A stretch of DNA of 64,000 bases, from contig NC_134025.1 in the NCBI RefSeq assembly GCF_964204645.1, positions 16,281,101 through 16,345,100 on the forward strand. Reading direction: 5' to 3'. How positions within the stretch are numbered: the first letter of the stretch is position 1; each line of letters starts with the position of its first letter. The stretch comes from Tubulanus polymorphus. Taxonomy: Eukaryota > Animalia > Nemertea. This document shows positions 37,451-64,000 of this stretch, piece after piece. The translations under genes and the position numbers were made by a program. The notes under the pieces are model-generated. The model ran no database searches. It worked only from the letters and a program-made list of their open reading frames with translations, and was not told the DNA's origin.

Positions 37451-37592
37451 ATGAATAACTTGACAGTAATAGGGAATATGGGGGTTCACGCCAAAGGTCG
37501 AAAGGTCGAAAAATAAGTTCTCGCATACTCGAATTTATTTTTCGACCTTTAACCTGAACCCCCATATTCCCTATTACTCTTAAGATATTCAT
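37451..37592. repeat. ~140-bp hairpin upstream of pPolB
   Basis: agtaatagggaatatgggggttca pairs with tgaacccccatattccctattact; inner aaaggtcgaaaaataa pairs with ttatttttcgaccttt. Confidence 0.8.
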
Positions 37593-38248: not shown

Positions 38249-38386
38249 GGGCCAGTTGCACAGTCATGACTTAAGTCCAAAAGTGGTCTTAAATCTTAAG
38301 ACTGGTCTTAAGTTGTTAGATTGGCTATAGAACTAAGTTGGTCTTAGACTGGTATTAAGTCTAAGCCACGACTATGCAACCGGCCC
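38249..38386. mobile_element. Short MITE with CWG TSD inside pPolB
   Basis: gggccagttgcacag / ctatgcaaccggccc arms, ctg and cag flanks, internal cttaag repeats. Confidence 0.7.
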
Positions 38387-39621: not shown

Positions 39622-40605
39622 CAGGGTGTCCTATTAATTAATATACATAAAGAACTGCCTGTCATTTTCAAACCACTTGAGATAAATCAGCCAAATCTTC
39701 AGGAGAGATGGACTACAATAATACTTTTCACCACAAAAATTACTTAACTAAAATCAAATTAGTTTACAAAATATGCTGGATCGGAGAACCTTTCAATTTT
39801 ATCACATGATTCAGTCTATTGTTGAAATTTCTCAGTACATTGACAATCATCTGTGTTATTGCAGTTTGGCTTGTTTTGGTACACTGTGTCCTTCAGCTAG
39901 CCCCACAAGTATCCAGTGGATTTAAGTCAGGCGAGTATGGGGCCCAGTCGTTTACAGTTTGGAGCGCTGAGATTCTGTCACCGAAATGCCTATGCAGAAC
40001 ATCAATTGTTTTGTGTGCTGAAAGACATTGCACACCATTCTGTCGGGACCACACAGGATTGAGACATCCTCTAGACATCTACGAATTTTGTAATGGAGTA
40101 CTGAATCAGCATCTTATGATAGCTGGCTCCATTCATAGTCAGCATTTCCTTTTTTGTCAAAAAGGTATGGCCCGATTATAGGCCCACTGGATGACCTACT
40201 GTATGGCAAATCCAAAGATCACACCTCGTAGACAACACACAGCTCACTTGATGACATTGATAAAGTGGCTTCTCTGCAATCAAATAGGGATTCTTGACAC
40301 CAAAATCTATGGTTCAGACAGACAGAAAGATTTGGTTTCCTAAAACCAGCATACCATCTAGGCTTTTTGTTTCAGAGACATAGATATGATTTAACAGTAA
40401 TCTATTCTTAATCAGAATTATACAAAATCACTACAACAATGTAATCAGTTGCTAGGAAATCACTAAGCAAATTACCATAGCAACCACGATAATAATCAAA
40501 AAGTACTGTTACATTCTATCATTTGGTGGAAAATCGAAACATTTCATTAAGAAATGTGGAGGATACAGGCAGTTCTTTATGTATAGTAATAAATGGGACA
40601 CCCTG
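39622..40605 (-). mobile_element. Tc1/mariner element, DD41D (rosa-like), decayed
   Basis: TA TSD, ~40-bp TIRs cagggtgtcc...aaagaactgcctgt. Remnant QNG...WAPYSPDLNPLD has 41 residues between the last two catalytic positions. Confidence 0.85.
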
Positions 40606-41607
40606 TATTTCATGATTTATCAGGGTATGATGCTCATTTATTTATCAAGCAACTATGTCATAAAATAGAAGAAATCAATAATGAAATAGAAAGATTAAAT
40701 TCAAAGAGATCAAAAGATAAAATACCAACTTAAGATGTTAGCTAAAACATCTGAAAATTATATATCTTTCCAATTTGGGTGTCTAAGATTTATAGATTCA
40801 TATAGATTTTTAAGCACTTCATTAGATAATTTATCAAAATCATTAGTTGATGATGAATTAAGAATATAAAAACAACACTATCCAAATAATGATGATTTTC
40901 AATTAATGAGATATAAAGGAGCAATTCAATATTCATTTTATAAAAATCATAATGATTTTAATATAACTGAACTTACAAAAGAACAATTCTATGATGAATT
41001 AAAAAATGAATATGTAAAAGATGAAGTTTATAATAGAACATTGAATATTTGGAATCATTTTGGAATGAAAAATCATGGACAATTAGTAGATTTATATCTA
41101 AAATCAGATGTATTATTATTAACTGATATATTTGAAAGGTTTAGAGATGTAAATCAAAAATATTTTAATATTGTTCCATGTCATTGTTATTCATCACCAG
41201 GATTAACTTGGGATTGTGGTTTAAAATTTACAGATATGAAAATGGATTTGTTAACAAATATAGATCAATTATTATTATTTGAAAAATCTATAAGAGGAGG
41301 AGTTTCAGGTGTATTAGGTGATAGATATTTCAATGTAAATGATAACCCTGGATATAAGTTATTATATGTAGATGCAAATAATCTATATGGTTGGGCAATG
41401 ATGGAACCTCAACCTTATGGAGTATTTGAAATAAGTGAAGTTTTACAGTATGAAAATAATGATAAATTTGATTGGAAGAAAAGAATTCTAGATATTGCGG
41501 ATGATTCAGATACTGGATACTTCTTTGTTGTAGACTTGGAATATCCTGAAAACATTAAATTTAAATCTAGAAATTTAGCATACTGTCCAGAACATAAAAC
41601 TTTTACA

Positions 41608-42190
41608 CGGGAAGCACCACAAGTAAGTTATGATAAGATTAAATCTATGGTTAATCGATGCTTAAAAAGCAATTAAATCACAAGATGACTAACACCCGTC
41701 TTTCGACCAATCAGCACGATACCAATTGATTAAATCATTTAACGAATTGGGCTCCTAATATTTGAAATCATTCGTTACAATAGTTGTTCTTTAGACTTGG
41801 CCACTTTTGTTTCAGATAACCGCGTACTAGACCAGTGGTCACCAAGGCATTAAAAAAGTTTTGGAAATTCGATGGTAACATTTTGTCCGTCAAAAAAACT
41901 GTTTCGTTATTATTTCAAGTTTTTCTTTTTAGTCTTCTATAGAATTAACTATATGACGAGTGTTCATAGGAATTGAAATTCGGTGTGATATCAGTCGCCT
42001 GTTACCCCTTTTTCATTGTCAGTTCTATCATGCGCTCTTTTTAAATCTAAAATAGAAAAAAACATGTGTGTTTCGTTATAAACAAGGTTAAATTCCAAAC
42101 GCACGTGAAATATGGAGCCTGTATCACACAATATACACATCTAGCATTTTCTCTAACTAGGCCCTTTCCAAATGGCAATTGTTCAGTTTT
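41608..42190 (+). repeat. Third, partial copy of the long repeat; truncates pPolB
   Basis: Matches 36610-37000 directly, and 46547-46708 and 46800-47400 in reverse. Confidence 0.85.
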
Positions 42191-43442
42191 TTAATGGCCG
42201 ACATTCAGAGGCACCTAAAAACCGGTGGTAGCGCTTGAGATTATCAGTGTAGGCCACATCTTACATCGATTCGGCTCGCGGTCGGTTGTTTAATGGAAAC
42301 ACATCTGGTTGACACTAGTTTCACAGTTGACGAATTCAGAAAACTTTTTTCAAATGTCTTTGATAACATCGTATACTATTCTTCTTAATTACCTTTCGCT
42401 GATTCCATAGATATGTTTTTATGAAAATTGCTCTAGTTATAACGGATTTACATACATGTAAAATCATTATTTTCAAAATATTCAATGTTCTCCGATTTTG
42501 AAGAAATTCTGTCATCTCCACACGACACATGATTTCACTTCGGCGCCTTTTAAGGGAGTGTCCCTTAAAGTTGAGTTCATACTTAGTCAAACAAGGAGAT
42601 ATGCCTGATTCCTTTTTAAAATCTAAATTCGACAGTTATCATCAAATTACTAGAAAGGGACAGCAGCTTTCGGTCATCCGCGAAAAGATACCTAAAATGC
42701 AGTCCTAGGGTTATGGAAAAACAGGACACGAAACATACAGAAAAATCCTTTGTTTGGTAGACTGAAATGATTGAACTCTTAAATAGCAACATTCAGAGAA
42801 ACAAAAACATAAGAACATATTCTCGCCCAGCCTTTAAAAAAAAACAAAACTTAATGATATGAGGCCACGGGTCATCTTTAATTGACATCTTTAATTGAAA
42901 TCAAATGATTTCAATTAAAGATGACACGTACTCATATCAAATGACAGAGCCTATATATTCATTCTCTTACGAGGATGGGTCTCCACATTCATAGGATAGG
43001 AGAATTGTGGGTTCGAATGATGAATACAACTAATAAAGCGTCAATTTCACTGATTCTTGCATAAAAATGTTCAAAGGCGCTTTAGAGTAATCGAGTAAGC
43101 AGATGTGTTTTTAGGAGTCTTTTGAATTTGAATTCAAATCGGGTGTTCATATCGACTATAATTGAGCATTCTAGGGCTGGAGCAAGAAACGTGTGGGATC
43201 GTCCGCCAAGGTATCGCCAAGGAGATAATAAGGAGCCAGTCCGTGGTGGCTATTGAAAGCGACGACCGCATATGAATGCATTGATTGAATGACATCTCAT
43301 AAGTCAGATTATATAAAATCAAACATGATATATGGATAAGTTATTCCATGTATACTGGTAAAAATGATGCCCAATATGTGATATAAATGTTCAATCAAAA
43401 AGTAGAAACTGAAACCATAATTCAGTATGGTATTGATACCAC

Positions 43443-44243
43443 GGTCACAATCCTCTCCTTAGTCGTTGTTTAATAAAAGCGATGATCGGTCCCTGGCGAG
43501 AGAATGTGTCCGTGCACAAACCCAAGTAAAAACTAGAATGCCGAAAAAAAATCTGAATGAATATAATAATAGTAATACGAATTTTATTTACCTTGATAAT
43601 TAATCTAAGCTTTCCAGTTAAACACAGTCCAGTTCTTAGCTCTAAGTTCCTATTGTACTCTCCTGCTGGTAACCCGTCCTGAATCAAATCCCAAACAAGC
43701 TTCTATCAAGTATCAATCGAATCTCTATCGAGTTTCTGCTCTCCTAAGACTGCGGGTCCCTTTTATAGAAAGAATCGGCACTCTTAAAATACCGACTCTC
43801 CCACTCGGCTTTTGGCAAGGAGCAGCAACCCACCTGTCATGACTGTTTTGGTCATGTAGAATTTAGCCTTAATGATTCGCTGATCTAAAATTATTTTCAA
43901 AACTGTTTTGCTAAACTAACCTTTTCCTTCCAACCCCCCTGTCATGACGCGGAATGATTTAATCACTCCTTGCTTATCATCGTTGAGAGAACAGCTATTC
44001 TTTGCGAATTACCAACAGACGTATACAATAAGAGAAACTTTAGAGTGCTAGTATTAACATTTAACACAAATCAATTTTCCTAAAACTTTAGCGATTACAG
44101 AGACTTTGTTCTTAATTAACATTTAGAATACTCAAATTAAATATATTTTCAAAACTTTGTTTTCATCACAAATAACGGTACAAACTTATTGTTTCTTTTC
44201 GACTTATCATTATTACTTTTGATTCGGAAATACATTGTGATCA
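43443..44243 (-). mobile_element. Possible solo LTR
   Basis: Imperfect inverted ends gtcacaat / attgtga; minus-strand TATAAAAGG (~43765) then AATAAA (~43585); no TSD found. Confidence 0.3.
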
Positions 44244-45003
44244 ATGATCATTCTTAAAATCATTCTATAACTGTCAAAGCAAAACAACAATGTCTCCCCA
44301 TACTTCCGTTTTTCTTATAAAAAGTACTCGGGAGTATCATGAAGTAACAGCGTGATTCTTTCACCAGCCACAAATGCACCCCATTGTTCCGACCCAACCA
44401 AACACGGTTCCATCTATTCTTAAGTTTATAAAACGATTTCTGAATGTTTGCCAGATATCGCAGCAGAAGAACCGAGAAAGAATTATTTTTACACCAGGCT
44501 GATTTATGGTCAGCGCTGATAGATTAAAGCATCAAACAACAACTTGCATACTACACCGTTTGTTGTCTGACAACCATTAATAACCACCAACGCATACAGG
44601 AAATCAACATTACAAACATTTTTTAGCTACGACGAAATCTTGCTGCGGATCATCAATCCCCATCCAGCTTAAATTTCGTCCCGAAATTTAGAATTTAGAC
44701 TACCGGGTACTCATGAAAATCACGCTGAAACCTCCCTAGACCGATCCTGAAAAAGGAAATCAATAAAAGACACAATTCATGCTATACGAGTAACTGTTTA
44801 AAGTTCAATCACAACAACGCGTATTAGAGTTCAGGATACCCAATCGGAAGAAAGTACAGTTGAGACCGCTGCCTCGCACACTAAACAAAGAAAAAGTCAA
44901 GCACAAAACAGTTCACAGTTTGAGTTTGAAGTTCACCGCGAAGTGACTCAATAGCTACCAGCCACAACAAGGTACGTCATGGACGGATGAATGACGTCAT
45001 CCA

Positions 45004-45325
45004 CGATTACGATTACGATTTTATTTACACTCCAACCATTTCCATGGTATATGGAGGAAAACTATTACACATGTATATACAAATATTTACAAAACAACAT
45101 TGAAGTGATTAAAATTTAGAGAATGAAAACGTAACAAAATACATATACATCAACTATTTACAATACTATATATACTATTGGAGGGATCTATATACATCCA
45201 AGCCGGTCTTAATGAATTTAGCTAATTTGGGTTTTTCAGAATATCAAGGGTATTAAAGGTATTCAAATTCAAATAGTTTTTGCGGGGTTCGTTAAGTAAG
45301 GTACAGTCAAACAGAAGCAGTTCCT
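45004..45325 (-). pseudogene. 3' fragment of a LINE (RTEX-like)
   Basis: Minus strand reads EELLLFDCTLLNEPR...LAKFI, then a UTR ending AATAAA plus (ATCGTA)n. Confidence 0.5.
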
Positions 45326-45619
45326 CGCAGCGCGTACCGCTACGTCGTTAGTACAGCAAAACGCATCATATGAGTCATTCTGCAGATTTTCCAAAACCTG
45401 CCCTGAGAGGCCAGTCGTTTGAATCAATGGAAAATGACAACCCATTCAACAGATTGAGCTGAAAAGCGGCAAGGTGTTCGGGATATTCAGATTCATTATG
45501 AGAATGCCGGTTTGCTAGCGTATCTATTTAACACTCGTATTGCTCGGGTTAGTTTTACTACCAACGGGTAGTGATTTTGATAGAAGATCTGGACGGAGAA
45601 TAAATATTGAAAATGAAAA

Positions 45620-46546
45620 TCCAGATTTAGTATAACAGAATTTAGAATATAATGAATATATAAATAATTTTAAACCTATATTTGAAAAATGTGGATATAA
45701 TATAAATGATAGAGGTGCCAGATATTTAGTAAGAGAATTAAAATCTTTAGATGGTAAATATTACTATCATTTGAAAGATGATTATTATATTAATATCACT
45801 TATAAAAATCAAAATAAAATATTAGCAGAATAAACTTTGAGTAATTTAGAACCATCTAGAATAAAAAGAATAAGTAATAGTAATGAAATAGAAAATGTTA
45901 CCGACACGTAAATAAATCAAAGTAAAAGAGTATTTAAACAAAAAATTAATGAATTATTTGAAACAATCAATAATAATTTAGAAACAGAAACAACCTCTGA
46001 ACAGAATATAACTTCCAAAACTAGAAAGCTTAAATCAAATGAAGTTCCAATTGAAAAACTTTTACCAAATGGGTTACTTGATGCAACAGATCAAGAATTA
46101 GAAGATTTAATTATATTTTCTGATAAAGCAATTAGAGAAATTATTAGTATAAGACTTACGTCTGATAAATTGCGCATGATAAAAGTATAAGAGATTTTAA
46201 AATTAGAACTTTAGAAAAAGATAGAACTGATAAAATTAAAGAAATAGAACAATTAAAATTAGATAGAGATAATAAAGTTATTGAAGAAATTGAATTTAAA
46301 AAAGGAAATGCATATTTAGAAAAAGAAAAAGATGATTTAGAATATAACATAGAATTACAGGAAGAAGAAATTAAATTATAAAAAAAAACATATAATTATA
46401 ATATTAATAGATTAAAAGTTATTTTTAAAGATTTGTTGATAAAACCAAATTCTGAAATATCATTGAAAGATAGAATAAAATTATTATTTAAACTAGAAGG
46501 CATAACAATTCTTTCAATTCTAACAGCTGTAACTATGGTATTTACA
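45620..46546 (+). pseudogene. AT-rich coiled-coil protein remnant ending in a hydrophobic helix; not in the ORF track
   Basis: Hand translation: IRTLEKDRTDKIKEIEQLKLD...RIKLLFKLEGITILSILTAVTMVFT with stops. Composition resembles the nearby pPolB. Confidence 0.55.
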
Positions 46547-48418
46547 AACTGAACAATTGCCATTTGGAAAGGGCCTAGTTATAGAAAATGCAAGATGTGT
46601 ATATCGTGTGATACAGGCTCCATATTTCATGTTTGGAATTTAACCTTGTTTATAACGAAACACACATGTTTTTATGCTATTTTAGATTTAAAAAGAGCGC
46701 ACGATAGTGTTTCATGAGACCCGCTCGCATGCGACATTAAAAACGGTACTTGATATGATAAGTGAACTTCATTGATATTTTTACTAATCTACTTGCCAAA
46801 AAGACAATAAAAAAGGGTTACAGCTGTATAGCTGATATCACTCAAAATTTCAATTCCTATGAACACTTTCATATAGTGAATTCTACGGAAGAGTCCTGGG
46901 GACATATCTATTAGTTAGTATCTATCTATTAGTAACTCGGAATAAACTAGTTTTCTCAGTTAAATGCGATTTTAAACTTCTAGTTTATTCCGAGTTGCAA
47001 ACTCGGAATTAACCTAAAAAATCATTAAACTGAGAAAACTAGTTGATTCATAGATACTAACTCGGAATTAACCTCGAATTTTTTCTTTAATAGATATGTC
47101 CGCGGGACGCTTCCATAGAATTCTATACAAGAGTAAAAAAACTTTAAACATTAACAAAACAGGTTTTTAGAGGCGGTAAAATCCGCGTTATCATCGAATA
47201 GTACGCGGTTTTCTGAAACGAAAGTGGCCAAGTCTAAAGAATAACTATTGTAAAAATGATTTCAAATATTAAGAACCCAATGCGTTTAATGATTAACTGC
47301 GCAGGTTGGTTGAAAGACGGGTGTTAGTCACCTTGTGATTTAATTGTTTTTTAAGCATCGATTAATTAATCTTATCATAACTTATTTGTAGGCGCTTCCC
47401 ACAAACATTTTCTATTCGTTGAGTTTTCAAACGCAGTACTGTTCAGATGATTTTAGTCAAGCTTCGAGTCAATTAGTAAAAAAGTTTAAAAGTAACCTAT
47501 TTATGGGTAATATATTTCCATCATGTCAACGCCATTCACAAACAGTAGCAAGACATACTGCTGGTCTCTAGAAATAGTAATACGACGACAAGCACTTTTC
47601 GAATTCGACCACGATATTTGAGAAGTTTCAATTGGGCAGTGGTGGTCAGTGATGGTCAATTTATGAATTTTCAATGGCGAATCCTTTCTGGTTTCACTAA
47701 ATGTGGTACCGGTATATCGTTCTTTCAAGAAGTTTCAATTGGTCAGTGGTGGTCGGTATAATGGTCAATTTATGAATTTTCAATGGCGAATCCTTTCTTG
47801 TTTGACACCATAACGTAGTATTTCGTTCTCATATTCGAGAAATTTGAATTGGTCAGTGGTGGTCAGTGATGAATTTGCAATGATTATTCATTAGTAGTTT
47901 GAAAACAAACATGACTTGAAAAATTTCCGAAATTCGTGTGTTCAAGTGTTCAGACTCGGGGATATCTCAATTGGTCAGTTTCTGACCATCATGGTGTCAC
48001 CATGATTGTGGTGTATAGCTCAAATGAAACATGTGGAACCGAAAAAGTAGCCCAAAAGCGTATGTCATTTCCAGTGATGTGATCCAAAAATGCCAGAACT
48101 GGAAAAAGCCGTCTCAGTCTCAATTAGACGAAATCAAATCGATCAGGAAAATTAAAATTTGGGAAGGCCACAGTGGCCTTTCTACGAAGCCCTAGTGGTA
48201 TAGCGTATTGGTATTATGACATCTTTTTTGTACCACATGAAGTAATAAGCATCGTTGTAAGCACTTGAAACTACCATTAACCACTTGAAACTGTCAGATC
48301 AAACATCATACCGCATCCCCGCAAAAGGGGTAGTTCAGCAAACTGGAGCTTTCATTTGCCTATCTAGACTACCCCGCCATTACGGGTAGCCGAGCAAACC
48401 GGAAAACTCATAATGTCA
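46547..48418 (-). repeat. Longest copy of the long repeat, inverted; contains a palindromic MITE at ~46899-47102
   Basis: Ends ccggaaaactcataatgtca, the reverse complement of the start at 35515. Confidence 0.9.
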
Positions 48419-49620: not shown

Positions 49621-50569
49621 CGGATTCTTAAGAATGACCCTTCTCAAACGCACTCATGTTCAGCTGATACTTGCTCGCCATTCATAGACGTTATAGTACT
49701 ACGGTTACTATATCGGAGTCTTTTCTCCACAGTTAATATAGAAACGGAACAGTAGCTTGCGCAAACAACATTCCATTGAGCGTAAATGTAAATACACGGT
49801 AGCCATCTTTAACACACTCGACTTTACCCCGCTAAAATGTCTACGGAATTTCTCTTTTTTTCTGCTTATTTCGTATCGCGTTGGCCAGGTGTCTTTGTCC
49901 ACCCTTCATCACTTAAGTTTGTGAGTATATAGCAAGTCTTCGAGAGTGACAAGCACCGCTAACCATGGCCATAATCGCATGACTTAACATCGGGCATGAA
50001 TCCATCCCGTTAAAACCAAGTGAGTGCATCGAAAAATTCATTGATCCGTACAATGTCTGTGTATTCTGTGGTTCATCCGACAAATACGATATTTTGAAGA
50101 AACACACAATCAGTCACAGAGGAGCAACAATATGATTTAAGCACCTCGAATCAACACGGATCGAATCGCCCATTTATTTAAGCAACGCGCCTACAACGAT
50201 TTGCCTACAACGTCCATTTATTTAACCAAATCGCCAACGCGAGTACCCAACGCGACCAAATCGCTCATCGAAGCGCTTTGATTCGATTTGCTACGACAGT
50301 GGAGCGTTCGGTTATAGATCAAAAACAAAATGGTGGCTTTTTCAATCGCAGAAAATTCAGGTTCCGGTTGTTCAGAGTAGGGTCATTTATTTAAGGCGAT
50401 TCGATTTGTACCACGTGACAGTAATCGACGGAGCAAAGCGATTTTATACGAGTTGCTTAAATAAAAATGCCTTTAGATCAGCGCTTGAAACTCCAATAAT
50501 TGTAAGAATAGAAGGTGCCCCGACCGATTGCCCACATGATGTAGTTGACCGCATCATAAAACGATATAG

Positions 50570-51095
50570 GATTGAATGTTTGGTCAGGTAGCCATATAAT
50601 CGTTTATGAACTAGCTTTTCAATAACTTTACTGATTGAAGGCAACAGTGATATAGGTCGATAGTTCGAAAATATTTTTTTATCGCCTTTATTGTATAGAG
50701 GGATTACTTTGGAGGTTTTTAGTACATCGGGCATCACACCATTTTGAAAGGAATTGTTAACGATATAAGCTAACGGTTTAGCAATGATATGGCTCGTAGC
50801 TTTTAGTACAGTATTGTTGATATTGTCATGCCCACACGAGGTTTTACAATCTAGAGAACAGATAGTGTTATAAAGTTCATTTTCGTCCTTGGGAAAAAGA
50901 AAGAAGTTGCTATCAAAGTTATTAGGCATATAATCTTTGAACGATTTCATTGATCTAGGTAATTTCTTAGAGAGATTTTCACCAACAGTGCTAAAATATT
51001 TAGAGTACTCATTACATATCAGTCGATTATCATTATATAACTTTCCATTAATATTAAACTCGTCTGGTATTGTTGATTTGTCATTTGTTTTACTT
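50570..51095 (-). pseudogene. CR1/L2-group LINE RT fragment
   Basis: SCGHDNI, KVIPLYNKGD, NYRPISLLPSISKVIEK. Confidence 0.85.
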
Positions 51096-51251
51096 CATGG
51101 TACTCCAGAGTTTACGGCTGTTTGTTTTGAAATTAAGCAATTTTTTGCTGAAGTATTGCTGCTTAGCTTTTCTTTTGATACTGTTGTAAGTGTTCCTATA
51201 AGTAGTTATATAGGGTCACTTTGGGACCGAGTGAGGAGCAGTGAGGAGCAA

Positions 51252-51307
51252 TGACGTCATCCCTGACGTCATGGATGACGTCATGGATGACGTCATTGAT
51301 TACATCA
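51252..51307. promoter_or_regulatory. Array of CRE-type palindromes in the Maverick terminus
   Basis: TGACGTCA at 51252, 51264, 51276 and 51288, plus a degenerate TTACATCA at 51300. Confidence 0.6.
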
Positions 51308-51574
51308 TGTTGGCGGGGAAAACGTGTTTGGGAATAACGATGATGTTAAAACAATGGGTTTATAATAGCCGAGCCATCGTATCCGATAGAACAATGACTT
51401 TGTAATTATTTCGTATACACTAAAAAGGGCTTTTGATCCGATTAACTGATTTAACACGATTCTGTATGGTTTTTAATTGCGCATTTTATTATTCTCCTCT
51501 AGTCACCACTAAAACAAAAATGACGATCTCCTCTAGTCACCACTAAAACAAAATGAACTATTAATTAATTAGAA

Positions 51575-51737: not shown

Positions 51738-52403
51738 CTAGTAAGCGTCGAAGTATACGTTTTGGACATTATACGATGGCATGACCCTCGGAGACCTCGA
51801 CGGTATGGGATCACTGTACGCATTTCGGCAATTATGGCATTCGAAACCCCGCACATTTTTCAGTTTTTTAATACATGCTACATGTATTTGTTTGTTGCAA
51901 CACCTCATTGGCTTATCGATACATGGTTCGTAGCAAATACAACAAGTTAAATCTATGTTTTGTTGACATGACTGGCACGATGACGATTCATTCAACGGTA
52001 CGACACACTCTTTGCACACAGGTTCGCTGCAACAAGGCATCTGTCCGGTCGTGTATCGGAGCGCGCATGCACGACAAACGTTTTCGTCCCTATCCAAGCC
52101 GGGTACTTGTCCAAAACAGCCAGCTTGAAAAAATTCATCGAAGTGTTCTTCAAACCCGCTTATGCGCATAAGCGGGCAAATAATATGTTCTTGGTCGATC
52201 TGGTCGGCCGCTGCCTCACTGAAACACCTGAAGCAAATGATCTTCTCGCAACAGTTTGTGACGAAATCAAATGGATCCTCATCGTGACCCAGTTGTTTCA
52301 TACAGCAGTGACATTTAACATCACCGGTAGCGGTATAAAAAATTGGAATTTCGCTTCTTTCCACATCCTGTTCTTTTTTCCAAAAGTCGTTGGAAAAAGC
52401 CAT
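51738..52403 (-). CDS. Maverick accessory protein with three RING-like zinc fingers
   Basis: CHCC..CCEKIICFRC..CP; CRAC..CCSEPVCKEC..CQSC; CCIC..CCNKQIHVAC..CHNC. Confidence 0.75.
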   Translation of the reverse strand: MAFSNDFWKKEQDVERSEIPIFYTATGDVKCHCCMKQLGHDEDPFDFVTNCCEKIICFRCFSEAAADQIDQEHIICPLMRISGFEEHFDEFFQAGCFGQVPGLDRDENVCRACALRYTTGQMPCCSEPVCKECVVPLNESSSCQSCQQNIDLTCCICYEPCIDKPMRCCNKQIHVACIKKLKNVRGFECHNCRNAYSDPIPSRSPRVMPSYNVQNVYFDAY

Positions 52404-54113: not shown

Positions 54114-54581
54114 TTATTTTACTAATTTGAAATATTTTACGATGAAATTTTTTACAATATAGTCGTTATCATTAGTTTTATTTTACAATAATTTCTTAAT
54201 TTCGTCTATTTCAAAACCGTGACATAGGTAAATTTGTACAAATATCGCGTAATAACCACATACATCGGATAATACGTTTTGATACATTTTAGTATTATAT
54301 TTCCAATCTATACAATTTTCGTCCAGAAAATTTTCTAATATTACATCGTAAGTTCTGGGTAATTGTCCAAAGGAATCGAAAAAGTAACCGATACCAAACT
54401 TATTGATATAAATGCTTAACCAATGTTCACCCGGTTGATCGTGATAATCGGTATTTACTATAAAACCAGCTGGATAACTATGTATATCGGGTAGTCGGTC
54501 GCACGGAAAAACGCCTAAAAAACACGATCGTAGACACTCGTCTTTTTTCATAAATTCTAAAATCTGATTCGTGTACAACAT
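54114..54581 (-). pseudogene. Adenain-like cysteine protease (PRO) with a premature stop near the C-terminus
   Basis: FLGVFPCD, GEHW, FFDSFG, YQ...CGYY. After the stop at 54183-54185 the frame continues NKTNDNDYIVKNF, resembling the usual ND..V..F tail. Confidence 0.85.
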
Positions 54582-54586
54582 AGTTA

Positions 54587-55898
54587 CTAATAATCAATTT
54601 CGATATGACGTTCTTTAGTTACTTGTAATAATTCGTCGAAAACGGCGTAAACGATTAAATTGACGTTGTGGGGTAAAGCTTCGTCAAATCTCATTTCAAT
54701 TTTTAACGAACCCCTTTTAATAAGTGACAAGTGCGGTTGATCACCGTATTCGGGCGATATATTAAAACAACAAATAAAGTTGCCGTTTTTAAAATGTTCT
54801 CGTTTAATTCCTATACCCTCATTTTTATACAATAGACCCCTAGCTAAATATAAACTATGATACACTTCACATCCATCACCGCGGGAGTCTATAATTAACG
54901 GCGAATTTTGTACGTGATTGTTATCGACACTAACACCTACATAACTCAATGAAAAGTCTCGGAAATCAAAGGGATTTTTTCGTATATTCCCGCTCAACGC
55001 ATCGTCGTCTACGAGCGCTAAAACGATAGCCTTTGGAATTTCACCCACAAAAACGGAATCCTTTACGATCGTTCTATGGCCTCTAGGAATATTCAATGAA
55101 GTTAATTCGGTTCTTGAAAAGTAGTATTTAGCCGTGTTTTTTTTCTAATGCCTTTGCGTGCGCAACCAAAACCGAGCTATCTAATTCTAGTTTTCGCAAA
55201 TAAAGTTGAGCGCTTTCTATTCTTATACGAAAATCAGCGTTTTCCGCGGGAGAAAGTAAAACGAAACTTTCCTTCGATCTATTCAGTTTAATTTGCATAT
55301 CTGTATTGTTGATGAAAATTTTATTCATTCTCATTACATCGCAGTATAATCGAGAATAAGCGCAGATTAGTTTACTGTTTTTTGTGTAATTATTTCTTCT
55401 AACCAGCCCGGTATTAGCACCGGCTATCGTCGGGTCGATATGATTTTTCTTGCCAGCCTCATCTTCAGTGTATAATTCGCATTGTAGCCAACTGCTATTT
55501 TTAGTTTCGGAATTATAGTTCAGCATATTTTCCAACTCACATTTAAACGGGTACAATCCGCCGCCGTGCGTAACGACGCGATCATTGAGCGTAATTTGAA
55601 CGTCGCTAAATAAACTGTAGACGCCATTAATCATCGACACGTATTTATCGGGCGCCACATTAGTGCCATCACCGTTGACTATTTTAAATTGTAGTTTCAA
55701 ATAAGTGACGTTTAAATCTAAATATTGTTCTGTTTTCGGTATCCTGAAGACGATAGGTCCCGAATCATTGATCGATGTAGAGGGTTCGTAACTAACGTAA
55801 CGGCATTCTTTGTAGTTTATCTGGGTACCGGGGATAGTAAACAAATCCAATTCGGATTTGACACACAGGGGCGAGTCTTTGTGTACTAATAACGACAT
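54587..55898 (-). pseudogene. Major capsid protein (PY, double jelly roll) with one frameshift
   Basis: CVKSELDLFTIPGTQ, GPIVF, SLFSDV, NPFDF, GSLKIEMRF. The two ORFs join if the T8 run at 55137-55144 is T7. Confidence 0.9.
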
Positions 55899-55903
55899 CT
55901 TGT

Positions 55904-56311
55904 CTAATACGCTTCGCCGCTAACACTTCTCTTTATACGTTTGCCTGTGGAAATAATCCGCTGTTTTCGTTTTCTCTTTTGACCTTTTAATGGTTTTGTA
56001 CCGGTTCGCACTTTACCCCGGATAATACGACCCATTGTTTCTAATCCGCGATCTTTAATGGCTGTGGCAAAATTCTTACCACCTACGACATCGCTCGCAA
56101 CGTGCAAACCCGTTCTTAGTAAATGAGGCACCGCTCGTTTAGCCATATTTTTCAATAGGGGTATTGCCGGTCGAGCGAGACCGCCTAAAACAGAAGCAAA
56201 TCCAGCACCGCCTTGTATAGGCGATGATGTGTACACGTCGACTCCGGCACCGCTTTGATTTGCGTAATATCTACAACAGACATCGTGATCTATTTCGCAA
56301 ATAGCCCTCAT
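55904..56311 (-). CDS. Conserved basic Maverick protein (PW-like by position), probable core protein
   Basis: YYANQSGAG and QGGAG adenain-type sites, amphipathic middle, K/R-rich tail; lies between minor and major capsid genes. Confidence 0.75.
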   Translation of the reverse strand: MRAICEIDHDVCCRYYANQSGAGVDVYTSSPIQGGAGFASVLGGLARPAIPLLKNMAKRAVPHLLRTGLHVASDVVGGKNFATAIKDRGLETMGRIIRGKVRTGTKPLKGQKRKRKQRIISTGKRIKRSVSGEAY

Positions 56312-57135
56312 ATTAATATATTTTTCTTTTTAAAATGTAAAACAAGATTAACTTTTCCTTTTTTAAAAACAGGTATTTTACCCGATTCTCTTCTTATAAA
56401 GACTTCTATAGTCTGAAAATTACTCCTTTGCACTGGAAAATATTGTAATTTGTTAAACTCTTTTCCAATAACCTTTCCAAAATTTATCGTGTTTAAATGT
56501 ACCATACGCAAAAGATTTGCGCTCTGATCGCCGACTAGTTGGGGTTCTATAACATCGCTATATATCATCAAATTATGATAGTCGACGTTTATATCGACAC
56601 ATCTAGACGCTGTGACTTCGATGTATTTGTAAATAGTTTTGGTACCATTACTATCTACAAATGGTCCATTTTTCTTCGAACCCTGACGAAGGTCGTTAGG
56701 TATATCGTTTACCGGTATACCAGATTTGAAGCCTAAAATCCACGCTATATCGTTCGTAAAAGTTAACGAACACTCGTCGTAAAACTTCACATTAACTTTA
56801 TGACTTAATTCGTCGAAACCTATAATTACTTTATCGTAAAACCACTTGTTGATTTCCGTTTGTATAACGGTGATTAATTGCGCAATAGTGTGATATCGAC
56901 CCTTCGGTATACGTAAGTATTGTTTTCCATGCTCCGGTGACGCCAATTCAAATCGTCCATCTTCGACGTTATCGAAATCTAGCATAAAGTTTATTTGGTG
57001 CAAGGCGCAAACCCATTTACCCTCGAGCGAAATCGATTCTCTCAATCGAACTTTGAAACTATGTTGAATGTTATCGGGGTAAAGATCAACGCTTGCGTCG
57101 CTTTTGAGATACACGTAAAAATCACTACCAATCAT
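56308..57135 (-). CDS. Minor capsid/penton protein (PX)
   Basis: FYVYLKSDAS..YPDN, W.CAL, IYSDVIEPQLVGD..NLLR, YFPV, TIEVFIR. Confidence 0.85.
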   Translation of the reverse strand: MIGSDFYVYLKSDASVDLYPDNIQHSFKVRLRESISLEGKWVCALHQINFMLDFDNVEDGRFELASPEHGKQYLRIPKGRYHTIAQLITVIQTEINKWFYDKVIIGFDELSHKVNVKFYDECSLTFTNDIAWILGFKSGIPVNDIPNDLRQGSKKNGPFVDSNGTKTIYKYIEVTASRCVDINVDYHNLMIYSDVIEPQLVGDQSANLLRMVHLNTINFGKVIGKEFNKLQYFPVQRSNFQTIEVFIRRESGKIPVFKKGKVNLVLHFKKKNILI

Positions 57136-58214
57136 TTCAGTTTTTTAATATCTTTTGCGTTTACCCAGGAATTAAATTTATCAGCGTAATTATACCACTT
57201 CACCAAATATTGTTTTCTCGAACCCTTTCCACGGGATTTAATGATCGATTCGACTTTATAAACATCACCCCTTTTATTGACTTTTATCATTTCGTATTCG
57301 TAAAAAACGCCATCTATTTCAACATCTTGTAAATCTTTAATCTTGTATACACACGGTTGGCGATTAATTCTTTTAGTTACAACAAACAACTCTGTACTCC
57401 AACCGGGTAAATAACCTTTTTGGAACTGCCCTTTTAGTTCGCTTATTCTAACAGTATCACCCACTCGAAATTTGAATTTCGCTCTATTTACTATGCGGTG
57501 GGGTCCGTATAGGTTTTTGAAAACTATGTATTCGTTTAACTGGTTAACGTCTATTGGAGCCATTTTTATACTGCGGTGATATGTATTGTTATATGATCGA
57601 ACTATATCGTCCAGTACATCGATGTATCTATACGAATGTCTATGCGAGAATATTTTATACATTTTTGATTTTAATGTACGTATCCATCGTTCGACAATAG
57701 CGCATTTTACTTCTTTTTTACTTCTGAAAAAACTTATACCCTCGTTTCTGAGAAAATTCTGTGTTTTTGAACCGAGGAACTCGGTCCCGGCGTCAGATTG
57801 TATAACGCTAGGTTTTCTATGTTTAATTATCTTTTTCAATCCTTCCACAACTGTCGAGTTGAATTTATTCAACAAAGGAACGGCGAAACCGTATCTCGAT
57901 AAAACATCTATAGCCGTCAATAGAAACTTGATACCGTCGTTGTGTTTGGAAATATTTGAAACGTCGCACAAATCTATTTGAAACTGTTCGTTCATTCGAT
58001 AGGCTATTGTTTTATTTCTGGGAAACCTTTTCCTCACTTTGGCGTGTAATGTGTAAACTTCTTGCTCGGATAGCCAATCCTTTATCTCATTAAGCGAAAT
58101 GTTTTTATTTTCTTGCCGACATATTCTGTGTAGAGCGTTTGCGCTCGAAAAACTGGCTGGTTTTTCGATACCATAATACTGATTGGCTAGGAATTTTTTC
58201 AGCTCCGCCTTCAT
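57132..58214 (-). CDS. Retroviral-like integrase with C-terminal chromodomain
   Basis: DDE motifs QIDL, QSDAGTEF, VERWIRTLK; YNNTYH; QYLVKW...FNSWV. Confidence 0.95.
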   Translation of the reverse strand: MKAELKKFLANQYYGIEKPASFSSANALHRICRQENKNISLNEIKDWLSEQEVYTLHAKVRKRFPRNKTIAYRMNEQFQIDLCDVSNISKHNDGIKFLLTAIDVLSRYGFAVPLLNKFNSTVVEGLKKIIKHRKPSVIQSDAGTEFLGSKTQNFLRNEGISFFRSKKEVKCAIVERWIRTLKSKMYKIFSHRHSYRYIDVLDDIVRSYNNTYHRSIKMAPIDVNQLNEYIVFKNLYGPHRIVNRAKFKFRVGDTVRISELKGQFQKGYLPGWSTELFVVTKRINRQPCVYKIKDLQDVEIDGVFYEYEMIKVNKRGDVYKVESIIKSRGKGSRKQYLVKWYNYADKFNSWVNAKDIKKLK

Positions 58215-58332
58215 TGATAACGGTATTTCCGTTACAACACGTGCTCACGCAGTTAATTCGATTGAATTTACAAATAAAACTTGGATCGTCTCGGTCCAAA
58301 CAACAACAACAAAACAATTTTCGTCAATTCAT
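58105..58332 (-). pseudogene. Small Cys-rich ORF overlapping the integrase start
   Basis: ATG 58332: MN*RKLFCCCCLDRDD...NCVSTCCNG, with TGA at codon 3. Confidence 0.4.
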
Positions 58333-58383
58333 CTTTATTTTTACAATAAAATATTTGTGATAACACGCCTTTTATTAATTTAT

Positions 58384-58911
58384 TCATTTAGAACATAAGA
58401 TGATGTAGAATAAAATTTCTTCGTACGCTTTTTGTAGTTCTTTTGTTTGTTTTGCGCCGGCTAGTATTATGGTTCCGCCATTATGAACAATACATTTAAC
58501 TCCATTTTCGCACATATACACTAAACCGGGGAATATTTCTGTGTTATATTCCGCTGTACAACAATAGTTCGAAAATTTCATCAAGTCAATATGCCGACCA
58601 GTTCTAACGACACCGGTTATTGTTTGTATTTTGTAGTTGTTTAACTTCACGTTGTATCCCATCTTTTGCAGTAAACGCGCAAATTGTCTCGTACTCCGTC
58701 GACTATTAGATTTACTTTTACACCCAGTAATTACCATCTTTCCATTGCCGAATAATAGACAATTACCTTCTATTTTACGATTCTTCCATATTAACCCGCT
58801 AAACTTGGAAGGGTTGTAAATTACATCGTGCGAGATTCTAGCGACATCGGTAAGATTTAATGAACTATTCAAACACGCCGTAGAGACGATGTTCACCACG
58901 TTAACGACCAT
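58384..58911 (-). CDS. TATA-binding protein homolog (core domain only), Maverick-encoded
   Basis: Both TBP repeats are present: NIVST..L..L..YNPSKF..LLFGNGKMVITGCKS..R..RQFARLLQKMG and KIQ..YNTEIFPGLVY..G.IILAGAK..ELQKAYEEI. Intact, intronless, 175 aa. Confidence 0.93.
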   Translation of the reverse strand: MVVNVVNIVSTACLNSSLNLTDVARISHDVIYNPSKFSGLIWKNRKIEGNCLLFGNGKMVITGCKSKSNSRRSTRQFARLLQKMGYNVKLNNYKIQTITGVVRTGRHIDLMKFSNYCCTAEYNTEIFPGLVYMCENGVKCIVHNGGTIILAGAKQTKELQKAYEEILFYIILCSK

Positions 58912-59008
58912 CGTATCAAATGGAAATCAAAACGTGCCCGAACACGTTCAGTTGCGCAATAATACTACGAACAATTGAACAATACATTTTAATTGCATTT
59001 TGAAGCCA

Positions 59009-59695
59009 TTAAAAGCTAAGCCAATTGGTGAAATCGACATTCCTAGCTCGCTTACTACGCAGTCCGGAACCGCGCTGATCTACTTTTGCATTCTTTTTTA
59101 CTGGAGACAACGACGCATCTAAATCTACGGTAAGTTCGCCTTTGAGCCGTCTCTTTAACATTTTATTATTTATTAGGCTAGTAGGAATATTAAGTTCGTT
59201 TATCGCTGACATATAATCTTCTAATCCAATATAGCTTTGGTTTAATGTAGTTAATACTAACGAAACGTAAACGAGGTCAGAAATATTGCTTCCAGGAATT
59301 AAATTATTCTTGTAGATTATTTCTCCTTTTTCGTTCCATCTCAAAACGTTTGTATTTTCTGTGAAAAATGTCAATAACGATTTACACTTATTCCGGAATT
59401 TAACCGGTATACGTTCGACAATTTTTTCAGTCGAATAAGTATTATTAACGACGTTGATATCTTCAATTTTTCGAGGTAGTGATTGTTTATCGCGCTCCGT
59501 TTTTTGTATAGCTTGCTGCAGCAACGGGTTATATTTTAGATATTTCAAATCATCGGATAGGTTGTTATCGTTTAACGGATTTCCGGTAACTGGTTTTTTA
59601 GTTATAGATTCATTTCCCTGTAGACTAGCTACGAATGCTTGTACTTGCGGTAACATTGCTTCCGGTAGAATAACCAATTTCTCTACGTTCTTCAT
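59009..59695 (-). CDS. Conserved Maverick protein (PZ-like)
   Basis: KLVILP start, LRWNEKGEI...IPGSNISDL, QRGSG site, terminal WLSF; lies between ATPase and integrase. Confidence 0.75.
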   Translation of the reverse strand: MKNVEKLVILPEAMLPQVQAFVASLQGNESITKKPVTGNPLNDNNLSDDLKYLKYNPLLQQAIQKTERDKQSLPRKIEDINVVNNTYSTEKIVERIPVKFRNKCKSLLTFFTENTNVLRWNEKGEIIYKNNLIPGSNISDLVYVSLVLTTLNQSYIGLEDYMSAINELNIPTSLINNKMLKRRLKGELTVDLDASLSPVKKNAKVDQRGSGLRSKRARNVDFTNWLSF

Positions 59696-60090
59696 GACGA
59701 AACTTTATCTATTACTTTGTTCGCGGCTTTACTTAAAACATTAGTCACGATAGATTCTAGAATCGGTTTCAACAAGAGAGGTGTCAATATGAATGGCAGA
59801 AATCCTCCCTTTTGAGAAATAACTCTCCTTTTATGTTTAACAGCTATAGATTTATTCGCTAACATACGAATGTATCGTTTATGTTGTTTTAACACCCGTT
59901 TCTCTTTGTCGCTATGTTCTATATTTCCCAGTAAACTGTTTTTAGATATTTCACAAATACAGTTAATTAGTTCTACTGGTGCCGATTCGATCAACGCTTC
60001 TCGTTGCTTTTTCTTACAACTTGCCAACACGTGAAAATGATGAACGTACTTTTTTAACCGATCAACGGATTTATTGTTACGAGGAACCAT
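59692..60090 (-). CDS. Conserved basic Maverick protein (PM-like)
   Basis: LINCICEISKNSLLGN and QKGGFLP followed by a hydrophobic helix. Likely start is the Met at 60090 rather than 60168. Confidence 0.75.
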   Translation of the reverse strand: MVPRNNKSVDRLKKYVHHFHVLASCKKKQREALIESAPVELINCICEISKNSLLGNIEHSDKEKRVLKQHKRYIRMLANKSIAVKHKRRVISQKGGFLPFILTPLLLKPILESIVTNVLSKAANKVIDKVSS

Positions 60091-60124
60091 CTTCCTTTTA
60101 TAAATAGTAGACCTTAGCTTTCTT

Positions 60125-60775
60125 TTAATGGATTTTCTTAGTTTTGTAAACGATGTGGTATACATCACTGGGAAATATTTTAGTCCTTAGTCGCCATTTA
60201 TCATCTGTTTTCGGTTTAAAGTCTAATAACAAATAACCGTGTGGTTCTTCTGTAGCATCTTTGAAAGCCTGTTCTATTTCATTTTCTAGTCCCACTTGTT
60301 GAGCTAACACCCGAATTTGGTTTCTATCTCGAGCGTTTTTGAATACGGCGATATAATGACTATTTAAACTAATCGTCCTAAAACCTTTCCCTTTAGGAAA
60401 TAAGTTTTGAACAATAGTGATAATAGAAATATTTCTATGATGAGCGCCCTTAGTATACAACGCCGCCAAGGTGTCATTACCGCCAACTTCGTTCATCAGA
60501 TCGTCGACTATTATTAAAGTGCGACTACTACCGTTTATTTTTTCGTATAGTTCATCAGAAAATCCTTCGACAAATTGAACATCAAATTTTTCCAATTCTT
60601 GAAACATTTCGGGCTGCGCCTCTCCATAACACCAATAAATTTTTTCCGGTTGTTTTTCTATAAGTTTTTCGGTAATTAATTTCTTTACAAACCAACTTTT
60701 ACCGGATGATGTAGGTCCGCAGACTAGCATAGTAAATGGATGCACGAGATATCTAGGCCCATCGTATTCTGCCAT
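60125..60775 (-). CDS. A32-like FtsK/HerA packaging ATPase
   Basis: Walker A GPTSSGKS, Walker B IIVDD, HHRNIS, QNLF, FKNARD. Confidence 0.95.
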   Translation of the reverse strand: MAEYDGPRYLVHPFTMLVCGPTSSGKSWFVKKLITEKLIEKQPEKIYWCYGEAQPEMFQELEKFDVQFVEGFSDELYEKINGSSRTLIIVDDLMNEVGGNDTLAALYTKGAHHRNISIITIVQNLFPKGKGFRTISLNSHYIAVFKNARDRNQIRVLAQQVGLENEIEQAFKDATEEPHGYLLLDFKPKTDDKWRLRTKIFPSDVYHIVYKTKKIH

Positions 60776-61023
60776 CTTAGTGGTTTTAGGGTTTTAGGGT
60801 TTTTGATTATCCGTAGTAGCCGACTTTTAATAATTTTGAATTTCAAAAATTGATAAAGTTTAGAATTTTACAAAACCAGGTTTGACAATTTTTCAAGTTT
60901 TAGAAAATGTGGTTTGTACATTTTTAATAGGAAAATACTAAGAGGTTTGATAAAATATTCAATTATAAAATTTGTGGTTTGGATATTTTTTTAAAGTAAA
61001 AAAGATGTTCTCTTTTATAGATC
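60776..61023. promoter_or_regulatory. Probable bidirectional promoter between ATPase and pPolB
   Basis: AT-rich gap between divergent ATGs; TATAAAA at 60964; four GGTTTG motifs. Confidence 0.55.
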
Positions 61024-64000
61024 ATGTATTCGTGCAGCATTTGTAACGCTACCTTCGCCTCGAAATTCAATCTCAAACGTCATGAGATGATGCATGAGGG
61101 TAAGAAGGGTTTCAAATGTCTGGAGTGCGGTAAAGCACACGCCAGAAAAGATAATTTAGTGCGGCATATGAAAAATTGTAATAATCGGCAGGTAGCGCAG
61201 GATAGAGTGCCACCGATAGCTCAGACTTCTGACCAACCAGACGATAAGCAACCTATATCAAATGTTCGGTCATCTCCTCAACCATCTACGTCAACCGCTT
61301 TCACGGTAAGAATCCTCAGACATATATATATATTATCATGATCATAATATATACGTTATACGTTTTGTATTTATATGTATTTAATTTGTATTTCAGTGTA
61401 ATAATTGCGGTAAAAGATCGGCTCGAAAAGATAATCTTAAGCGGCACATGAGATCGTGTAAACCACGACGACCGGTTGCGAAGGAATTCTCATGTTCTAA
61501 TTGCGCAAGATCTTTTACCGAAATAAACGATTTGAAAATACATAGGGAACATTGTAGTTCTACGGCTCAGAAACGACCCAGGGACGATGACGACAATGAC
61601 CAGCAATCGACACAAAAACGTCTGTGTCATAATAATAATAGTCCCGATGAAATTATTAGAGGGAATATTAAGTTAGTTAGAGTAAGTATTATCGAACAAA
61701 TTCGATAGATCGTGAAAGGACGATGATAGTAATAAGGAAGAGGACGATACCGTAACAGCGCGCGATACCGAAACAATACTCCGCGAGTATTTAAGTAACA
61801 TCCTAGCGGCAATGAGTGAGATGTTAGACGCCCGGCCAACCGATATGTTGAGGATTTCGATAGAACATGAAAATCTTCAAAGAAATATCGAATACTTCTA
61901 CGTACCTCTAGAAGAAATCACTATCGATTATTTACTCGAGCGTATTGTTAGTGTTCTTCAGTCTAACGAAGATCTATCTTTGGACGGGCTGATCTTTCAT
62001 TGTACACTCATTAGGATGTCTCTCGGTGGTGCTAGACAAAAGCGGATAACGACTGACTTTGAACAGTTCCGAAAAACAAAGAAATCGGTCATCAGTATAA
62101 ATAATGATGACGATTTATGCCTAGCGAGGGCGCTAGTCGTGGCGAAGGCGCGAGCCGATAATGACCCTCGTTATAACATAATTCGTAAATGCGAAAAATC
62201 ACCGCAACGAGAAGCCGCTCTCGCATTGCACCAGGCGACAGGAGTCCCCACCGGCAAGTGTGGAATCCCCGAGCTGGACAAAATGGTGAAGGCTAAACTT
62301 GACGATTATTATGTTTTAGTGGTGACTGGAGACAATAACGCATACCACGTATTGTACGAAAACGATAAAAAAAATATTAACCCAGGATTCGAATGCGAAG
62401 AAAATAAGCCTTTTATACACGAATGGCCACTTCGACGTCGTATCGTCAATGGCTGCATTTACGTGTCGTGTATATTTCTGTTTCTCGTGTAAAAAAGGAT
62501 ATAATACAGCCGAAGCGCATCGTTGTAATGACAAATGTTCCTTATGTCGTGGCAATTGCGCTCGAGAACAGAGGGGCAATTATTTTTGCAATCGTTGCAA
62601 TATGTACTATAAATCGGAAGCGTGTTTTGCCAATCATTTAAGACCTTTGGCAACGGGTCAAAGCCTTTGTAATTCGCGGGCACGGTGTATGCGTTGTGGC
62701 TCTATTATTCCCCGATCGAAACTGGATCCTAAATTACACGATTGCGGTAAAAAGTATTGTTCCTCGTGTAAAGAAAAGCTACCTATAGGCCATCTTTGTT
62801 ATATTGGGGTGACAAAAGGTCAGGAGCACGTGGTCCCCGAAGGCGATAAAAACACGCATCAATTAATCAATCCTTATTTAGACGCGAAAAGCGAAGAATT
62901 CAAAATTAGAAAATTTATAGCGTTTGATTTCGAAACGACTACTGTGGATTCGAACCACGTTGTAGTATTAGGTATAGCACACAGAACGTGTCAAATGTGT
63001 AAATGGTCAAGGCGTACTCCAGACTCGTCATGCGACCATTGCGGTAAACACGAACACGTGTTCAAGTCGGATATCGATTTCTGCAAATGGCTGTTTACTG
63101 AGGAGAATAAGGGTTCCACTGTTTTTGCGCACAATTTTCAATCGTTTGACGGCTATTTTATTTTAAGATATTTGGTTTCGCAAGGCATACTACCGGACAT
63201 AGTACCAAACGGTGGTAAAATTATGACGATGTCTATCCAACATTTGGACATTAAATTTTTGGATACTTTGAATTTCCTACCTATGAAACTTGGTAAATTA
63301 CCGGAAACATTAGGTATTCCGGAATTGAAAAAGGGTTATTTTCCGTACACTTTTTGTACTGGAAAAAATATGAATTATGTAGGACCGATTCCGGATTTAC
63401 ATTATTATAATCCTGATGGCATGAGTTCCAGCGAGAGGAACGAATTTGTAAAGTGGCATACAGAGCGCCGGTCTGAAAATTTCGTTTTTGATATGCAACA
63501 CGAGTTGATAGGGTATTGTCGGTCCGATGTTGACATATTAATGCAATCGGTCATTAATTTCCAACATCAATTCTTTGCACTTACTTCAGTCGATCCTTTT
63601 AGAAATTCAATTACCATTGCGTCGGCATGCAATCTAGCGTTAAGAACAAATTTCCTAAAATCGGAAACAATTGGCTTAATACCCCCAGGCGGTTATAGAC
63701 CCAATGCTAAGTTTTCAAAAATGAGCATCCGTTGGTTAAGATGGCTATCTGAAAATAATGATATTCGAATTCAACATGCGTTGGATGGCGGTGAAGTAAC
63801 TATTGACCGCTATAAAGTGGATGGTTACCACGCCGAATCAAACACCGTGTATGAATTTCATGGCTGTCTGTACCACGGATGCCCTAAATGTTTTAAAAAT
63901 TCAGATATGCAGTCGCCGGTGCGGCCCGATAAAAAATTTGGTGAACTTTATCAGGCTACGTTAGAAAAGAGTGCAAAGATTAGGGCCCTTGGATATAATT
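61024..64000 (+). pseudogene. Maverick pPolB: C2H2 fingers, vOTU, Cys-rich region, exonuclease, VSR-like insert; intron 61306-61396; incomplete at the window edge
   Basis: DDLCLARAL and NGHFD (vOTU). Frame from 62401 (absent from the ORF track; no stop in the stretches I translated) has FDFET, AHNFQSFDG, KGYFP, YCRSDV, VDGY...YEFHGCLYHGC. Frame breaks near 61710 and 62370. Confidence 0.92.

Follow-up and report, generated by a model that had tools for sequence, protein, structure and literature searches.

An open reading frame for a TATA-binding protein (TBP) within the gene block of a Maverick/Polinton element in the genome of the nemertean Tubulanus polymorphus raises the question of what a mobile element does with such a protein. 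The window, a stretch of 64,000 nt of contig NC_134025.1, contains the frame at 58384-58911 on the minus strand, intact from ATG to stop, intronless and coding in a single frame for 175 aa. Pfam family PF00352 matched in two stretches (E=1.8e-35; score 121 bits, cut-off 22.9), and phmmer against the PDB sequences returned 35 distinct matches, all of them TBPs, with yeast TBP on top (E=3.6e-30, residues 4-166). The initial annotation, made from the letters alone, had claimed both TBP repeats in an intact frame, which these matches bore out. Its residue assignments in yeast numbering hold in the phmmer alignment to yeast TBP: N69, F99, F116 and F190 are kept, N159 is replaced by T (T97) and F207 by H (H143), so that the four-Phe/two-Asn set of canonical cellular TBP is incomplete. 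An AlphaFold2 model computed from a 28-sequence in-family alignment had a pLDDT of 97.2 and superimposed on yeast TBP (1ytb) with a TM of 0.96 and an rmsd of 1.3 A; it superseded an earlier model from four sequences, in which the lobes were misplaced (TM 0.55). The protein is a two-repeat member of the TBP family with a predicted saddle fold, yet it belongs neither with the canonical TBPs nor with the vTBPs of herpesviruses.

The surroundings of the gene are those of a Maverick/Polinton. Several hallmarks were found: a protein-primed PolB (DNA_pol_B_2, E=3.1e-25), an rve integrase, a packaging ATPase and an adenain protease (Table 1). Together with capsid-like genes and an arrangement in two opposed modules, this content resembles the Mavericks, Polintons and adintoviruses described in the available sections of PMC8097293 and PMC8502044; the eight core genes that PMC8097293 lists there for vertebrate Mavericks do not include TBP. 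Pfam and PDB sequence searches with the capsid ORFs were blank. The intact major capsid of a related element (L002, see below) matched Atlas clusters in which 14-30 % of the members carry a DJR-like_dom, a lead for the assignment. The TBP gene had been described as co-oriented with its neighbours and tightly packed between the integrase and a so-called PZ-like gene, the 228-aa ORF without a Pfam match. The orientation is correct, the tightness is not: 97 nt separate it from the upstream ORF and 169 nt from the integrase start. The latter gap contains the start of the small conserved Cys-rich ORF, whose relatives (L001 2546-2905, L002 3142-3501, L003 4456-4809) likewise had no Pfam match; in the copy of the window, an in-frame stop (read with X) comes early. 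In the left arm, an ORF for 221 aa (51738-52403, minus strand) is Cys-rich and RING-like, Pfam blank and without an upstream box. AGTAGT at 51201 is presumably the terminus motif of the element; the TGACGTCA palindromes follow each other in tandem with 12-nt spacing (51251-51310) and, in our estimation, resemble CREB/ATF sites. The right end lies beyond the window.

Table 1 Features of the element, with positions in the window
Feature	Position	Strand	Remarks
Candidate left end	51201..51310	+	AGTAGT, then tandem TGACGTCA palindromes
Adenain-type protease	54183..54581	-	Peptidase_C5 (Pfam)
Putative double-jelly-roll major capsid	54587..55898	-	two frames, split near 55130 in the window copy
135-aa ORF	55904..56311	-	basic C-terminus; conserved in relatives
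Box ATTAAAAG	55984..55991	-	93 nt before major capsid; 95-96 nt in relatives
Putative minor capsid (penton)	56308..57135	-	named from position and size only; Pfam blank
Box TTTATAAG	56393..56400	-	89 nt before 135-aa ORF; 89 nt in relatives
rve integrase	57132..58214	-	C-terminal chromodomain; Pfam
Box AATAAAAG	57271..57278	-	in integrase coding sequence, 143 nt before minor-capsid-like ORF; 149 nt in relatives
Small Cys-rich ORF	58105..58332	-	overlaps integrase 5' end in another frame; conserved in L001-L003
Box AATAAAAG	58369..58376	-	44 nt before small Cys-rich ORF; 45-46 nt in relatives
Element TBP	58384..58911	-	two repeats; N-terminal extension absent; rewired DNA face in the C-lobe
228-aa ORF	59009..59695	-	conserved; no Pfam match; box upstream in no lineage
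Small basic ORF	59692..60165	-	conserved; no Pfam match; likely start 60090 by comparison with relatives
Box ATTAAAAG	60122..60129	-	39 nt before likely start 60090 of small basic ORF; overlaps ATPase stop codon
Packaging ATPase	60125..60775	-	Adeno_IVa2, Pox_A32 (Pfam)
Box ATTAAAAG	60824..60831	-	56 nt before ATPase start, 33 nt in L002/L003; strand without a gene upstream
C2H2 zinc-finger ORF and protein-primed PolB	61024..64000	+	divergent, several frames, extends past the window

The copy in the window has capsid, PolB and small-ORF genes that are partly decayed or mis-assembled, while its TBP frame is open. A 5778-nt contig of sequencing run X1 covers 54150-59823 with 10 mismatches and one gap, and this run may be the source of the window itself; the TBP gene is also covered by reads of a second study (X5). 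The frame breaks near 55130 in the capsid gene and at 62330-62490 in PolB are common to some reads, not to all. Near the 3' end of the TBP gene (58429) one base is missing in six of 27 X5 reads, thus some copies carry a broken TBP; copy-level variation across the gene was taken from 40 of 493 differences.

Relatives were obtained from metagenome contigs at 23 loci. Four of these are close, with 45-47 % identity in TBP: L001 and L002 form one lineage, L003 and L004 another. All four keep the gene order of the window, with TBP in the same slot, over the stretch that their contigs cover. The other 19 loci encode distant TBPs (24-38 %), and further element genes were matched at L023 only. Viral contigs yielded no relatives to queries with integrase, ATPase, capsid, the 228-aa ORF or either of two TBP alignments, nor did prokaryote genomes to one sub-alignment. 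An Atlas look-up of the element TBP led to generic TBP clusters only, and cluster look-ups for 13 relatives returned no names. Between L002 and L003 the TBP gene has a dN/dS of 0.166 (bootstrap 0.10-0.26), with 0.07-0.31 for the neighbouring genes compared. In a tree of 112 of the 336 proteins, from which the mini-TBP of L023 was dropped as its match was too short, the element TBP falls into a clade of 60 tips with an SH-aLRT support of 97; its members are mostly 160-190 aa long. Archaeal-type TBPs, the named cellular TBPs and two TBPL1 proteins of aphids all lie outside the clade, in a comparison set that did not include the TBP of the host itself. An earlier FastTree run with 222 sequences gave a support of 0.963 for a 28-tip version of the clade. 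Genomic context was seen in three lineages only, and it is for these, not for the other clade members, that a Maverick clade is established.

A recent retrocopy of a host TBP, or a passenger without a role in the element, would explain the lack of introns and the identity of 33-34 % to eukaryotic TBP versus 7-21 % to the viral TBPs of BFVD. The initial annotation had named three observations that would refute an element-borne TBP: absence from sibling elements, a dN/dS near 1 and nesting next to the host TBP as a recent retrocopy. The data point the other way in each case. TBP occupies its slot in all four close relatives, in elements whose synonymous sites are saturated relative to the window (pS 0.77-0.80 and pN 0.33 in TBP), the dN/dS is 0.17, and the protein stands outside the cellular TBPs in its own 60-member clade. 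A retrocopy is in practice refuted, and it is nearly certain that TBP is a conserved element gene of a Maverick/Polinton lineage.

The changes in the protein are unevenly distributed over the two lobes. For the 16 DNA-contact positions of Table 1 in PMC12529657, eight per lobe, the element TBP agrees with yeast at seven of eight in the N-lobe and at two of eight in the C-lobe (F190, P191). The altered contacts are N159T, V161T, L205I, F207H, V213I and T215A; V203K and R196M are further changes. According to PMC1636458, the C-proximal domain of TBP binds the TATA box in its 5' half, I194, V203 and L205 determine the specificity at position 2, and P191 is described as enforcing T at position 1. 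Across the clade, position 159 is T in 58 of 60 members (N in 51 of the 52 sequences outside), position 161 is S or T in 60/60, V203 is V in a single member and L205 is L in none, and at position 207 there are 32 members with F, 12 with Y and nine with H. In the element TBP, E188, P191 and the basic helix 2 (R137, R141, K145) are retained and E186 is lost. R137 and R141 are invariant in the clade (60/60), and E188 is kept in 56 of 60. The stirrup contacting TFIIB had been read as altered, from YEPELF to YNTEIF; the sequence is right, the change only half of what it seemed, for E188 is kept and I in place of L189 is common outside the clade (23/52). With cellular TBP (yeast 1ytb, human 1cdw) the element protein shares the predicted saddle (TM 0.96), N69, F99, F116, F190, P191, E188 and basic helix 2. 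It differs by its low identity of 33-34 %, the missing N-terminal extension, six of eight changed C-lobe contacts, the loss of E186 and its coding in a mobile element.

Such a protein might have lost useful DNA binding and act as a decoy or antagonist that soaks up TFIIA, TFIIB, TAF1 and Mot1 and dampens host transcription. The precedent is TRF2, which, as a passage in PMC10005294 states, cannot bind TATA after loss of the intercalating Phe; the loss of N159 and F207 and the invariance of R137 and R141 would fit. TRF2/TBPL1 is a diverged TBP paralogue with this Phe lost; the two aphid TBPL1 proteins fall outside the 60-tip clade, though they aligned poorly. Against a decoy, the DNA face of the N-lobe is kept (7/8), the C-lobe substitutions at 159 and 161 are fixed and specific rather than signs of decay, and a decoy leaves unexplained the promoter box described below. 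We consider this role improbable.

A candidate target for the rewired lobe lies in the element itself. A box of the form (C)WWTAWAAG stands 33-149 nt upstream of the same six genes in the window, the L001/L002 and the L003 lineages, the three compared; since L002 and L003 are related, these represent about two independent lineages. For the small basic ORF, the box-to-start distance is -39 to -48 across the lineages. At the 18 conserved sites, positions 1-2 are AT (9), TT (5) or AA (4), never TA; positions 3-8 are TATA-like (TAAAAG in 14, TATAAG in four), and a C precedes the box in 16. WTTAWAAG took rank 2 in a k-mer discovery on L002 and L003, a test that was not blind, the motif having been spotted by eye beforehand. 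In the window, five of five matches fell into upstream intervals, which make up 25 % of the span (p=0.0009); with the window as training set instead, overlapping motifs were recovered. The motif was found 25-100 nt before 4/10, 5/10 and 5/9 genes of the three lineages against null means of 0.3-0.6 (p=0.001 each, the floor of 1000 codon-preserving resamples with proteins and intergenic composition held), counted with a gene list which the small Cys-rich ORF entered only after its box was noticed. The first ATG at least 25 nt past the box was a gene start for 6/9, 4/7 and 4/8 boxes, with backgrounds of 0.17, 0.10 and 0.10. The canonical TATAWAW was rejected as promoter of the element: in the same interval it preceded 0/10, 0/10 and 0/9 genes and was not enriched. 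No conserved box of their own was present for the 228-aa ORF, the integrase and the protease in the three lineages, and none upstream of TBP. The region 60776-61023, proposed by the initial annotation for DNA-binding assays, holds one box shared with the relatives (60831) and a second match (61019) without a gene start behind it; most boxes are elsewhere, inside the upstream coding sequences.

ATTAAA and AATAAA are poly(A) signals, and the box contains these hexamers as cores; the one at 58369..58376 could double as the poly(A) signal of the TBP gene. Two of the six box sites are at gene ends, an observation that counts against a late switch, and one conserved copy lies antisense at a stop codon. 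The box might therefore be a by-product, owed to poly(A) signals, to stop codons and to codons that are conserved, with TBP acting elsewhere, e.g., on the terminal repeats or the PolB promoter. This seems quite improbable in view of the ATPase site, which has no upstream gene on its strand, and of three sites inside coding sequence, ahead of the stops. Neither are the TTTA variants poly(A) hexamers, nor would a by-product account for the conserved C at -1 (16/18) and G at position 8 or for p=0.001 against a null that preserves the codons. The antisense copy, ATTAAAAG, is at the stop of the 228-aa ORF (window 59008, plus strand; L001 1703, L002 2301, L003 3638 and L004 1776, minus strand). No conserved ORF follows it in comparison with L001-L004; it may serve as a promoter in antisense or be there by chance, because the gene ends at this point. 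Candidate CCAAT/ATTGG motifs lie upstream of TBP: a single palindromic CCAATTGG at about 59025-59028 in the window, and TGATTGG two to three times in L002 and L003, 125-211 nt upstream. They are putative NF-Y sites.

The element TBP is likely a late-gene promoter factor that serves its own (C)WWTAWAAG box via the RNA polymerase II of the host, a reading from sequence comparison to which we assign a probability of roughly 0.6. Where the rewired lobe reads, the bases of the box differ from TATAAAAG; the half that the conserved lobe reads is kept. This suggests a late switch made of one protein, and the matching box lends indirect support to the late-gene switch with altered TATA specificity that the initial annotation had proposed. 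A plausible course would be the following. TBP would be produced first, from a host-type promoter, as the missing box and the upstream CCAAT motifs suggest. AAAG, the canonical-like 3' half, would be read by its conserved N-lobe. At positions 1-2, the rewired C-lobe (N159T, V161T, V203K, L205I, F207H, V213I, T215A) would accept AT, TT or AA where TA is canonical. Contact with host TFIIB and TFIIA-type partners would be kept through E188 and basic helix 2, and TBP on the box would then bring TFIIB and RNA polymerase II of the host to the genes for capsid and packaging. Several observations weigh against such a switch: 13 of the 18 conserved sites start with A, yet P191 is retained; F207 is kept in 32/60 clade members; and in the wider clade the N-lobe drifts too (T124 kept in 7/60). 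The loss of E186, the three genes that lack a conserved box, the antisense copy and the small number of independent lineages count on the same side.

The boxes may also be weak TATA variants read by the TBP/TFIID of the host, with the element TBP as a booster of relaxed specificity and no switch from early to late. Positions 3-8 are canonical-like, P191 is retained, and, going by the title of PDB entry 1qna, the AdML box in its T(-30) variant has been crystallised with wild-type TBP. An element lacking TBP would serve as control; no such sister element was found in these scans, and the box is thus possibly read by host TBP. On the other side, none of the 18 conserved sites has the canonical TA at positions 1-2, TATAWAW lacks enrichment before genes, and the changes in the protein cluster in the lobe that reads these two positions. 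We regard a host-read box as unlikely, though less so than the decoy or the by-product.

The late-gene promoter factor has its nearest functional parallel in herpesviruses. KSHV ORF24, EBV BcRF1 and HCMV UL87 are TBP mimics of beta- and gammaherpesviruses associated with TATT late boxes (PMC4893493, PMC12529657, available sections). They resemble the element TBP in being virus-encoded, in having a DNA face of greater polarity and in the variant TATA box that precedes structural genes. They are, however, large and multidomain, share about 10 % identity with TBP, act in a six-protein complex and lack the acidic TFIIB residues, whereas the element encodes a bare core of 175 aa with E188 kept, and its box is altered at positions 1-2, theirs at position 4. 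Partner genes of the six-protein herpesvirus type were not found among the element ORFs in the window. We infer that the element TBP may work like these mimics, as a functional analogy only. The TBP homologues of nucleocytoviruses have the viral TBP fold in common with it, at an identity of 7-21 % among the BFVD matches. Nucleocytoviruses mostly bring their own RNA polymerase.

The initial annotation knew of no TBP in a Polinton, which overstated the novelty somewhat. Starrett et al. 2021 (PMC8502044; preprint 10.1101/697771) label a gene 'TBP' in the legend of their Fig. 5, in a MELD virus with adintovirus-like PolB, hence a TBP-like gene in a Polinton-related midsize virus. In the text available the label stands in the legend only, within a section on non-animal datasets, with no analysis of family, residues or promoter. 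A term look-up gave no mention of TBP in the accessible text of PMC8097293, PMC11131425, PMC12220804 and 10.64898/2026.06.19.733378, and no TBP match came from a supplementary file of PMC8502044 or from one of PMC11131425. No description of a Maverick TBP clade or of a matching box was found in the literature outside figures, most supplements, Repbase and subscription papers.

With about even odds, the case extends beyond this element. Mavericks would run a herpesvirus-like early-to-late programme with a single captured TBP, its C-lobe re-cut for an element-specific box (ATTAAAAG-type here), protein and promoter co-evolving as a private Pol II code. The 60-member clade would then be a library of TBPs with altered specificity, and some lineages would add a TFIIB of their own, as L023 suggests. 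No paper on the timing of Maverick capsid genes was found. Given a conserved factor and a defined candidate box, one protein and a few short oligonucleotides suffice to test this timing. A late programme, if true, would support the view of Mavericks as particle-making elements. The clade offers natural TBPs changed at the same positions as the engineered mutant TBPm3, useful for studies of TATA recognition and possibly as orthogonal pairs of promoter and factor.

L023 is a different Polinton-like contig. In the region 217-2540, a capsid-like gene and a protease-like ORF share one strand. The opposite strand has a TBP-like ORF of 174 aa (a single PF00352 stretch, E=6e-14) and, after it, an ORF with a putative TFIIB zinc ribbon (E=1.3e-5, below the cut-off). 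Within the window, an older, degraded element with PolB lies at about 35600-48330 in long inverted repeats (PF03175 match at 40906-41673). Transposase-like or retroelement-like ORFs, which point to a eukaryotic, probably animal genome rich in repeats, were recognised by eye at 22638-24569, 24655-27521, 29298-30485 and 50444-51094, the last, the one compared with Pfam, with a weak RVT_1 match and adjoining the left end of the Maverick.
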